From the NCBI RefSeq assembly GCF_041886205.1, contig NZ_CP169029.1: 64,000 nucleotides of DNA. One strand, 5' to 3'. Position 1 is the first letter of the stretch; each line of letters starts with the position of its first letter. Source of the DNA: Escherichia coli. Its GTDB lineage: Bacteria; Pseudomonadota; Gammaproteobacteria; Enterobacterales; Enterobacteriaceae. Under the pieces are notes generated by a model. It was not told the origin of the DNA. It made no database searches and saw only the letters and a program-made list of their open reading frames with translations. The position numbers and the translations under genes were made by a program. Shown piece by piece: positions 54,146-58,595 of the stretch.

Positions 54146-55879
54146 GTGAAACAACAGATACAACTTCGTCGCCGTGAAGTCGATGAAACGGCAGACTTGC
54201 CCGCTGAATTGCCTCCCTTGCTGCGCCGTTTATACGCCAGCCGGGGCGTGCGCAGTGCGCAAGAACTGGAACGCAGTGTTAAAGGTATGTTGCCCTGGCA
54301 GCAACTGAGCGGTGTCGAAAAGGCCGTTGAGATCCTTTACAACGCTTTTCGCGAAGGAACGCGGATTATTGTGGTCGGTGATTTCGACGCCGACGGCGCG
54401 ACCAGCACGGCTCTAAGCGTGCTGGCGATGCGCTCGCTTGGTTGCAGCAATATCGACTACCTGGTACCAAACCGTTTCGAAGACGGTTACGGCTTAAGCC
54501 CGGAAGTGGTCGATCAGGCCCATGCCCGTGGCGCGCAGTTAATTGTCACGGTGGATAACGGTATTTCCTCCCATGCGGGGGTTGAACACGCTCGCTCGTT
54601 GGGCATTCCGGTTATTGTTACCGATCACCATTTGCCAGGCGAAACATTACCCGCGGCGGAAGCGATCATTAACCCTAACTTGCGCGACTGTAATTTCCCG
54701 TCGAAATCACTGGCAGGCGTGGGTGTGGCGTTTTATCTGATGCTGGCGCTGCGCACCTTTTTGCGCGATCAGGGCTGGTTTGATGAGTGTGGCATCGCAA
54801 TTCCTAACCTGGCAGAACTGCTGGATCTGGTAGCGCTGGGGACAGTAGCGGACGTCGTGCCGCTGGACGCTAATAATCGCATTCTGACCTGGCAGGGGAT
54901 GAGTCGCATCCGTGCCGGAAAGTGCCGTCCGGGGATTAAAGCGCTGCTGGAAGTGGCAAATCGCGATGCGCAAAAACTCGCCGCCAGCGATTTAGGTTTT
55001 GCGCTGGGGCCACGTCTCAATGCTGCCGGGCGACTGGACGATATGTCCGTCGGTGTGGCGCTGTTGCTGTGCGACAACATCGGCGAAGCGCGCGTGCTGG
55101 CAAATGAACTCGATGCGCTAAACCAGACGCGAAAAGAGATCGAACAAGGAATGCAAGTTGAAGCCCTGACCCTGTGCGAGAAACTGGAGCGAAGTCGCGA
55201 CACGCTACCCGGCGGGCTGGCAATGTATCACCCCGAATGGCATCAGGGCGTTGTCGGTATTCTGGCTTCGCGCATCAAAGAGCGTTTTCACCGTCCGGTT
55301 ATCGCCTTTGCGCCAGCAGGTGATGGTACGCTGAAAGGTTCAGGTCGCTCCATTCAGGGGCTGCATATGCGTGATGCACTGGAGCGATTAGACACACTCT
55401 ACCCTGGCATGATGCTGAAGTTTGGCGGTCATGCGATGGCGGCGGGTTTGTCGCTGGAAGAGGATAAATTCGAACTCTTTCAACAACGGTTTGGCGAACT
55501 GGTTACTGAGTGGCTGGACCCTTCGCTATTGCAAGGCGAAGTGGTGTCAGACGGTCCGTTAAGCCCGGCCGAAATGACCATGGAAGTGGCGCAGCTGCTG
55601 CGCGATGCTGGCCCGTGGGGGCAGATGTTCCCGGAGCCGCTGTTTGACGGTCATTTCCGTCTGCTGCAACAGCGGCTGGTGGGCGAACGTCATTTGAAGG
55701 TGATGGTCGAACCGGTCGGCGGCGGTCCACTGCTGGATGGTATTGCTTTTAATGTCGATACCGCTCTCTGGCCGGATAACGGCGTGCGCGAAGTGCAACT
55801 GGCTTACAAGCTCGATATCAACGAGTTTCGCGGCAACCGCAGCCTGCAAATTATCATCGACAATATCTGGCCAATTTAG
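54146..55879 (+). CDS. recJ: Single-stranded-DNA-specific 5'-3' exonuclease RecJ, 577 aa
   Basis: ORF track 54146..55879, GTG start; DHH/DHHA1 motifs (VVGDFDADGATS, DHH). Confidence 0.96.
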   Translation: MKQQIQLRRREVDETADLPAELPPLLRRLYASRGVRSAQELERSVKGMLPWQQLSGVEKAVEILYNAFREGTRIIVVGDFDADGATSTALSVLAMRSLGCSNIDYLVPNRFEDGYGLSPEVVDQAHARGAQLIVTVDNGISSHAGVEHARSLGIPVIVTDHHLPGETLPAAEAIINPNLRDCNFPSKSLAGVGVAFYLMLALRTFLRDQGWFDECGIAIPNLAELLDLVALGTVADVVPLDANNRILTWQGMSRIRAGKCRPGIKALLEVANRDAQKLAASDLGFALGPRLNAAGRLDDMSVGVALLLCDNIGEARVLANELDALNQTRKEIEQGMQVEALTLCEKLERSRDTLPGGLAMYHPEWHQGVVGILASRIKERFHRPVIAFAPAGDGTLKGSGRSIQGLHMRDALERLDTLYPGMMLKFGGHAMAAGLSLEEDKFELFQQRFGELVTEWLDPSLLQGEVVSDGPLSPAEMTMEVAQLLRDAGPWGQMFPEPLFDGHFRLLQQRLVGERHLKVMVEPVGGGPLLDGIAFNVDTALWPDNGVREVQLAYKLDINEFRGNRSLQIIIDNIWPI

Positions 55880-55969
55880 CGTCATCTTCTCTATAAAAAA
55901 GAGCGTGGATTGGGTACAATCCCGCTCTTATCACCGCATTTTGACTAGCTCAATAAAAGAAATCAGACC

Positions 55970-57068
55970 ATGTTTGAAATTAATCCGGTAAATAATCGCA
56001 TTCAGGACCTCACGGAACGCTCCGACGTTCTTAGGGGGTATCTTTGACTACGACGCCAAGAAAGAGCGTCTGGAAGAAGTAAACGCCGAGCTGGAACAGC
56101 CGGATGTCTGGAACGAACCCGAACGCGCACAGGCGCTGGGTAAAGAGCGTTCCTCCCTCGAAGCCGTTGTCGACACCCTCGACCAAATGAAACAGGGGCT
56201 GGAAGATGTTTCTGGTCTGCTGGAACTGGCTGTAGAAGCTGACGACGAAGAAACCTTTAACGAAGCCGTTGCTGAACTCGACGCCCTGGAAGAAAAACTG
56301 GCGCAGCTTGAGTTCCGCCGTATGTTCTCTGGCGAATATGACAGCGCCGACTGCTACCTCGATATTCAGGCGGGGTCTGGCGGTACGGAAGCACAGGACT
56401 GGGCGAGCATGCTTGAGCGTATGTATCTGCGCTGGGCAGAATCGCGTGGTTTCAAAACTGAAATCATCGAAGAGTCGGAAGGTGAAGTGGCGGGTATTAA
56501 ATCCGTGACGATCAAAATCTCCGGCGATTACGCTTACGGCTGGCTGCGTACAGAAACTGGCGTTCACCGCCTGGTGCGTAAGAGCCCGTTTGACTCCGGC
56601 GGTTGTCGCCACACGTCGTTCAGCTCTGCGTTTGTTTATCCGGAAGTTGATGATGATATTGATATCGAAATCAACCCGGCGGATCTGCGCATTGACGTTT
56701 ATCGCGCGTCCGGCGCGGGCGGTCAGCACGTTAACCGTACCGAATCTGCGGTGCGTATTACCCACATCCCGACCGGGATCGTGACCCAGTGCCAGAACGA
56801 CCGTTCCCAGCACAAGAACAAAGATCAGGCCATGAAGCAGATGAAAGCGAAGCTTTATGAACTGGAGATGCAGAAGAAAAATGCCGAGAAACAGGCGATG
56901 GAAGATAACAAATCTGACATCGGCTGGGGCAGCCAGATTCGTTCTTATGTCCTTGATGACTCCCGCATTAAAGATCTGCGCACCGGGGTAGAAACCCGCA
57001 ACACGCAGGCCGTGCTGGACGGCAGCCTGGATCAATTTATCGAAGCAAGTTTGAAAGCAGGGTTATGA
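55970..57068 (+). CDS. prfB: Peptide chain release factor 2, 365 aa, made by programmed +1 ribosomal frameshift (frame 0: 55970-56044; frame +1: 56046-57068)
   Basis: ATG at 55970 gives [25 protein letters not shown], then in-frame UGA at 56045-56047 within the shifty motif CUU UGA C preceded by the SD-like AGGGGG; the +1 frame continues [12 protein letters not shown]... to the stop at 57068 (ORF track 56187..57068 is in this frame); SPF and GGQ motifs present. Confidence 0.95.
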
Positions 57069-57077
57069 GGAACCAAC

Positions 57078-58595
57078 ATGTCTGAACAACACGCACAGGG
57101 CGCTGACGCGGTAGTCGATCTTAACAATGAACTGAAAACGCGTCGTGAGAAGCTGGCGAACCTGCGTGAGCAGGGGATTGCCTTCCCGAACGATTTCCGT
57201 CGCGATCATACCTCTGACCAATTGCACGCAGAATTCGACGGTAAAGAGAACGAAGAACTGGAAGCGCTGAACATCGAAGTCGCCGTTGCTGGCCGCATGA
57301 TGACCCGCCGTATTATGGGTAAAGCGTCTTTCGTTACCCTGCAGGATGTGGGGGGCCGCATTCAGCTGTACGTTGCCCGTGACGATCTGCCGGAAGGCGT
57401 TTACAACGAGCAGTTCAAAAAATGGGACCTCGGCGACATCCTCGGCGCGAAAGGTAAACTGTTCAAAACCAAAACCGGCGAACTGTCTATCCACTGTACC
57501 GAGCTGCGTCTGCTGACCAAAGCACTGCGTCCGCTGCCGGATAAATTCCACGGCTTGCAGGATCAGGAAGCGCGCTATCGTCAGCGTTATCTGGATCTCA
57601 TCTCTAACGATGAATCCCGTAACACCTTTAAAGTGCGCTCGCAGATCCTCTCTGGTATTCGCCAGTTCATGGTGAACCGCGGCTTTATGGAAGTTGAAAC
57701 GCCGATGATGCAGGTGATCCCTGGCGGTGCCGCTGCGCGTCCGTTTATCACCCACCATAACGCGCTGGATCTCGACATGTACCTGCGTATCGCGCCGGAA
57801 CTGTACCTCAAGCGTCTGGTGGTTGGTGGATTCGAGCGTGTATTCGAAATCAACCGTAACTTCCGTAACGAAGGTATCTCCGTACGTCATAACCCAGAGT
57901 TCACCATGATGGAACTCTACATGGCTTACGCAGATTACAAAGATCTGATCGAGCTGACCGAATCGCTGTTCCGTACTCTGGCACAGGATATTCTCGGTAA
58001 GACGGAAGTGACCTACGGCGACGTAACGCTGGACTTCGGTAAACCGTTCGAAAAACTGACCATGCGTGAAGCGATCAAGAAATATCGCCCGGAAACCGAC
58101 ATGGCGGATCTGGACAACTTCGACTCTGCTAAAGCGATTGCTGAATCTATCGGCATCCACGTTGAGAAGAGCTGGGGGCTGGGCCGTATCGTTACCGAGA
58201 TCTTCGAAGAAGTGGCAGAAGCACATCTGATTCAGCCGACCTTCATTACTGAATATCCGGCAGAAGTTTCTCCGTTGGCGCGTCGTAACGACGTTAACCC
58301 GGAAATCACAGACCGCTTTGAGTTCTTCATTGGTGGTCGTGAAATCGGTAACGGCTTTAGCGAACTGAATGACGCGGAAGATCAGGCGCAGCGCTTCCTG
58401 GATCAGGTTGCCGCGAAAGATGCAGGTGACGACGAAGCGATGTTCTACGATGAAGATTACGTTACCGCACTGGAACATGGCTTACCGCCGACAGCAGGTC
58501 TGGGAATTGGTATCGACCGTATGGTAATGCTGTTCACCAACAGCCATACCATCCGCGACGTTATTCTGTTCCCGGCGATGCGTCCGGTGAAATAA
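57078..58595 (+). CDS. lysS: Lysyl-tRNA synthetase (constitutive), 505 aa
   Basis: ORF track 57078..58595; [33 protein letters not shown]. Confidence 0.97.

Follow-up and report, generated by a model that had tools for sequence, protein, structure and literature searches.

The prfB gene of Escherichia coli, which encodes release factor 2 (RF2), provided the founding case of programmed +1 ribosomal frameshifting and of a translation factor that gauges its own concentration. A related principle operates in the eukaryotic antizyme genes and in the yeast elements Ty1 and Ty3, where a slow A-site codon leads to re-pairing of the P-site tRNA or to a +1 shift, and the outcome reports the level of a regulator. 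The stimulators of antizyme and Ty1/Ty3 frameshifting, e.g., polyamines, rare tRNAs, and pseudoknots, differ from those of prfB, as do the organisms in which they act. To our knowledge, the interaction between a Shine-Dalgarno (SD) sequence and the anti-SD is used by none of antizyme, Ty1, and Ty3.

The prfB frameshift motifs of bacteria were reportedly surveyed by Baranov et al. in 2002, and a further survey was published by Prince et al. in 2025 (PMC12421855). In the latter survey, which covers more than 12,000 genomes, the motif elements are described as "almost completely conserved", and the last bacterial common ancestor is inferred to have probably had the motif (PMC12421855). The same paper traces the dependence of frameshifting on the RF2 level, the slippage of the tRNA, and the role of the SD to Craigen et al. 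1985, Craigen & Caskey 1986, Weiss et al. 1987, and Poole et al. 1995; dependence on the RF2 level, both in vitro and in vivo, is reported for E. coli in work that it cites.

In this study, a candidate frameshift site was followed up in a window of E. coli DNA (the window being the whole stretch analysed, 64,000 nucleotides). An earlier note on this DNA had read the site as the programmed +1 frameshift of prfB. That reading gained support from the RF2 product, from a passed prfB protein model, and from the 'programmed frameshift' annotation in RefSeq, and the site is almost certainly the E. coli prfB programmed +1 ribosomal frameshift by which RF2 autoregulates its synthesis. The assignment draws on the anatomy of the site, the co-linearity of RF2 with two reading frames, the annotation, the conservation, and the complementarity between SD and anti-SD, each of which is presented below.

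A gene in two reading frames

The ATG at 55970-55972 opens frame 0 of prfB, which comprises 25 sense codons and is then closed by a TGA at codon 26 (56045-56047); the coordinates that the earlier note had given were all correct. Around the premature stop the bases read CTT AGG GGG TAT CTT TGA C, and the cassette spans 56033-56048 (Table 1). All parts of the AGGGGG-UAU-CUU-UGA-C cassette that the note had recognised, i.e., the internal SD, the CUU, and the UGA-C, were found at the canonical spacing of the literature (PMC12421855). The corresponding 16-mer, AGGGGGTATCTTTGAC, has a single occurrence in the window with up to two mismatches allowed, and approximately 0.02 occurrences are expected by chance. 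Downstream, the +1 frame is free of stops from 55992 (the preceding stop lies at 55989) to the TGA at 57066-57068, and it stays open for 341 codons after the junction. Over 56045-57068 it is the sole stop-free frame, as frame 0 contains 25 stops and frame +2 contains 13.

Mechanical ORF listing breaks prfB up into two ORFs, one of 25 aa (55970-56047) and one of 293 aa, the latter beginning at the first in-frame ATG (56187-57068). The note's remark that a naive ORF caller returns only the downstream part holds for this 293-aa ORF, and the same shortened version of prfB was also found in public automatic gene calls. The practical meaning for annotation is that a caller blind to recoding splits or shortens an essential gene, as in the public 293-aa call.

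Table 1. Features of the prfB locus and its neighbours, in window coordinates.
Feature	Position	Strand	Remarks
recJ, 577 aa	54146..55879	+	5' neighbour of prfB
prfB frame-0 segment, codons 1-25	55970..56044	+	Ends with slippery CTT (Leu25); aligns to residues 1-25 of solved RF2
Internal SD-like AGGGGG	56033..56038	+	3 nt 5' of CTT and 6 nt 5' of the stop; matches the published motif in spacing and sequence
Spacer TAT between AGGGGG and CTT	56039-56041	+	
Slippery run CTTT (CTT 56042-44 plus T 56045)	56042..56045	+	Sequence read; re-pairing from CUU to UUU taken from the literature
Premature RF2-specific TGA plus C (weak TGA-C context)	56045..56048	+	C at 56048; context effect taken from the literature
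prfB +1 segment, codons 26-365 plus TGA 57066-57068	56046..57068	+	Aligns to residues 26-365 of solved RF2
RF2 codon 212, TGT (Cys); CGT (Arg) in compared E. coli references	56604..56606	+	Codon-recognition domain, outside the frameshift signal
lysS, 505 aa	57078..58595	+	3' neighbour of prfB; ATG 9 nt past the prfB stop codon

Several features of the flanks were also recorded. At the 3' end (region 57060-57080), the GAGGA Shine-Dalgarno of lysS is overlapped by the prfB TGA at 57066-57068, and the spacing of the two genes is consistent with co-transcription and possibly with coupled translation. In the spacer between recJ and prfB, an imperfect inverted repeat (AGAGCGTGGATTGGGTACAATCCCGCTCT; 55897-55931) is preceded on the plus strand by an A-run at its 5' side and was scored as terminator-like on the minus strand in a consensus scan; this repeat may act as the terminator of recJ or may belong to the prfB leader. 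The scan for promoter and terminator consensus sequences over 55700-57200 gave one promoter-like hit versus 0.9 expected and one terminator-like hit versus 1.6 expected, i.e., numbers not above those of shuffled sequence.

The protein encoded across the junction

A joined product was composed of codons 1-25 in frame 0 and of 56046-57065 in the +1 frame, fused between CTT and GAC, which yields 365 residues. It aligned to the solved E. coli RF2 (PDB 1gqe) over residues 1-365 (E 7.5e-240), free of gaps at the junction ...LRGYL/DYDAKK..., and the only differences were R212C and an L/V difference at residue 294. The NCBIfam model TIGR00020 (prfB) scored the joined product at 522 bits with a cutoff of 370, and the scores of RF1 models were under their own cutoffs. 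In RefSeq, the orthologue of the site is a two-piece CDS annotated as "peptide chain release factor 2 / programmed frameshift", located between recJ and lysS. By homology, the host gene is one that encodes the class I release factor RF2.

These results also bear on the remainder of the earlier note. The rest of RF2, which it had assigned to the +1 frame through 57068, is stop-free there and co-linear with the solved protein. The alignment to RF2 across the junction, which it had proposed as a check, covers residues 1-365 without a gap at that point. Finally, a continuous single-frame ORF for full-length RF2, which it had named as the observation that would contradict its reading, is absent here, as it had predicted.

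Residue 246 of the encoded RF2 (56706-56708) is Ala (GCG), as in PDB 1gqe, and Thr246 is present in a sequence common to PDB 1ml5 and eight other entries. Thr246 is the laboratory variant of K-12, and the window, carrying Ala246, is therefore probably of non-K-12 origin.

Conservation within E. coli and across phyla

Of 5426 complete E. coli genomes, 5425 contain a match to the prfB region (1.6 kb, at least 95% identity), and the best matches differ from the window by a single base over the 1.6 kb. An identical copy of a 61-mer centred on the site is present in 4410 of the complete genomes, and the other 1015 have it with at most three differences; in one variant that was sampled, the sole change is synonymous (TAC to TAT at codon 27).

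For the comparison across species, the exact 16-mer was searched for with one genome taken per species, which gave at least 120 loci; this sample was picked by the cassette match itself and thus indicates breadth, not an unbiased rate of conservation. Among the matches listed, the prfB frame junction lies at the identical 16-mer in 118 of 120 loci, and N-terminal peptides ending in ...LRGYL precede the cassette in the same number (118 loci among the matches listed). The +1 frame right after the 16-mer aligns to RF2 with 41-99% identity in 115 of the 120 loci listed, with the alignment starting at residue 26 in all of these except one (L017, residue 31). Three further loci among the matches listed end early with their contig, but the RF2-like ...LRGYL leader is present in them. 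Two loci (L042 and L063) are chance matches to the 16-mer, with RF2 in no downstream frame within the locus, and the bare 16-mer accordingly has a rough false-positive rate of 2/120 among the matches listed. The hosts in this list comprise Gamma- and Betaproteobacteria, Bacteroidota, Nitrospirae, Deltaproteobacteria, and Rickettsiales. Judged from the E. coli genomes, from these loci, and from the unbiased published survey (PMC12421855), other genomes keep the frameshift site at the orthologous position.

An additional observation concerns ten loci from Bacteroidota and similar hosts (L006, L014, L019, L040, L048, L052, L061, L073, L091, and L111), which contain an identical AGGGGGTATCTTTGAC and an RF2 that is only 41-48% identical to that of E. 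coli. The hosts of these loci include Bacteroidia, whose ribosomes are reported to disregard SD sequences to a large extent, and the low efficiency of prfB frameshifting in Bacteroidia is attributed to this (PMC10798248).

Proposed course of the frameshift

Translation of prfB would start at the ATG at 55970 and, after 25 codons, would bring CUU (Leu25) into the P site and UGA-C into the A site. When RF2 is abundant, the UGA would be recognised and a 25-residue peptide released; when RF2 is scarce, the ribosome would pause at the weak UGA-C stop. During such a pause, the AGGGGG(U), three bases 5' of the CUU, is expected to pair with the 16S rRNA tail that carries the anti-Shine-Dalgarno, and the E-site tRNA would be displaced. 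The peptidyl-tRNA-Leu could then slip from CUU to the overlapping UUU, one base downstream, so that GAC enters the A site and the ribosome reads on in the +1 frame, producing the full-length RF2 of 365 residues. In this manner, RF2 would titrate its own synthesis.

Between the cassette and the 3' tail of 16S rRNA, for which the established E. coli sequence was taken from outside the window, a duplex of -12.6 kcal/mol is predicted, compared with -5.0 +/- 2.2 kcal/mol for shuffled sequences, and 4 of 1000 shuffles were as low. A second stretch inside prfB, GGAAGGTGA (56477-56485), is predicted to pair with the anti-SD just as strongly in 9-nt windows (-10.9 kcal/mol vs -10.7 kcal/mol for the frameshift SD). 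It is followed on its 3' side by neither a slippery codon nor a stop and is probably an incidental internal SD-like sequence. An Rfam scan of 55600-57300 at permissive E-values placed no family over the site; for a short linear signal such as this one, that outcome is expected and carries no information.

Alternative explanations

The interruption of the reading frame could in principle lie in the data rather than in the gene, i.e., a sequencing or assembly indel may have broken up what is really one continuous ORF. A one-base change in a homopolymer is able to hide or mimic the frameshift signal, and one complete E. coli genome contains just such a difference: in BH100 substr. MG2014 (NZ_CP024650.2; locus L002, 151-210, equivalent of 56033-56038), GGGG stands in place of GGGGG, and the RefSeq prfB is annotated, without a frameshift note, as a single in-frame CDS on account of this G4. 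The G4 of that strain probably stems from an error in assembling the homopolymer and not from a natural loss of autoregulation, and the case illustrates that the annotation of the prfB site is fragile. For the window itself, an assembly error was rejected on the population data of complete E. coli genomes, in 4410 of which the 61-mer of the site is identical and in 5425 of which it is present. The interrupted architecture moreover recurs in 118 loci among the matches listed, in distant phyla, and the solved protein matches ...RGYLDYD... and not the ...RGIFDYD... of a G4 allele, which makes an indel very unlikely. It is even harder to believe that a frameshift mutation has turned prfB into a pseudogene. 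The TGA at codon 26 is what such a gene might show, but the +1 frame remains open for 341 codons while frame 0 accumulates 25 stops, the product is essentially identical to a functional, crystallised RF2, and the same codon is interrupted in nearly all E. coli genomes and across phyla.

Other accounts accept the sequence as it stands and explain it without a ribosomal shift. In one of them, the locus would make two products, i.e., a leader peptide of 25 residues and, from internal initiation, an RF2 shortened at its N-terminus, with AGGGGG as an ordinary ribosome-binding site. The AGGGGG is indeed strongly SD-like, and naive callers do return a 293-aa ORF from the ATG at 56187; from the stop at 55989 to 56187, which is 149 nt past the SD, the +1 frame nevertheless has no ATG, GTG, or TTG, and internal initiation from AGGGGG was rejected as no +1 start codon is present before 56187. 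Residues 1-72 belong to the solved RF2 chain, and the frame-0 peptide is kept as the N-terminus of RF2 in homologues, so that this account has next to no chance of being correct. Slippage of RNA polymerase, by which the frame would be restored in the RNA and not by the ribosome, could start from the homopolymer runs at the site (G5 and T3). These runs are short for such slippage, and the conserved RF2-specific stop, its following C, and the fixed SD spacing, as described in PMC12421855, fit translation instead; the literature cited there reports a dependence on the RF2 level in vitro and in vivo. Transcriptional slippage is thus highly improbable, and the programmed ribosomal frameshift of prfB is the reading retained.

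A rare allele of RF2

Over the 1.6 kb, the window and its best E. coli matches differ by one base, a C to T change at 56604, which turns Arg212 of RF2 into Cys. Position 212 lies five residues past the codon-recognition tripeptide SPF (205-207) and adjoins Arg213, a residue that has been extensively studied by mutagenesis (PMC8131318). Among 100 homologues of RF2, 87 have Arg at position 212, 8 have Lys, 5 have Gly, and none has Cys, and Arg213 is invariant.

The distribution of the allele was assessed with 30-mers in which each 28-base seed spans the SNP, together with a positive control. The two T-bearing (Cys212) 30-mers that were tested had no match in complete RefSeq genomes of E. coli, and the C-bearing control was found exactly in 3653 complete E. 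coli genomes. The Cys212 allele is real and rare: the exact 365-residue protein is present in NCBI (WP_374028436.1, XGC73944.1, and HCO0096887.1), and the gene was also found in seven independent public read-set assemblies (SRR28800585, ERR9845695, SRR31599018/15, SRR35130060, DRR381733, and ERR4035246). In these assemblies, the prfB region falls into at least six haplotypes, 16-40 bases apart in 2082, one of which is identical to the window; the presence of Cys212 on at least six haplotypes suggests a recurrent origin. In the literature, no paper was found that mentions R212C in connection with prfB.

Since RF2 senses its own level at the frameshift UGA, an effect of Cys212 on codon recognition could shift the set-point of the autoregulation. 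It may be speculated that Cys212 weakens or alters the recognition of UGA/UAA, leading to more frameshifting and to more of a less active RF2, and that its occurrence on at least six haplotypes reflects recurrent selection and not chance; this proposal as a whole is considered unlikely.

Relation to described prfB frameshifts

The rare R212C change is the one item in this locus that is perhaps worth following up, and a further E. coli instance of the prfB site otherwise adds nothing new. Among other bacteria (Gamma- and Betaproteobacteria, Bacteroidota, Nitrospirae, and others), the prfB motifs share the identical 16-mer at the same position of RF2, and they differ in the flanking codons and in the length of the frame-0 leader. 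The closest described system is the E. coli prfB +1 frameshift (Craigen et al. 1985, Craigen & Caskey 1986), with which the window has in common the organism, the gene, the order recJ-prfB-lysS, the cassette CTTAGGGGGTATCTTTGAC, the position at codon 26, and the product of 365 residues. The differences are allelic only, i.e., the window has Cys212 for Arg212, and Ala246 (as in PDB 1gqe) and not Thr246 (as in PDB 1ml5). Each defining feature of the prfB frameshift that can be read from sequence is present in the window. By this sequence comparison, the site in the window is the E. coli prfB frameshift itself and not merely a look-alike; it is real, ordinary, and already known.
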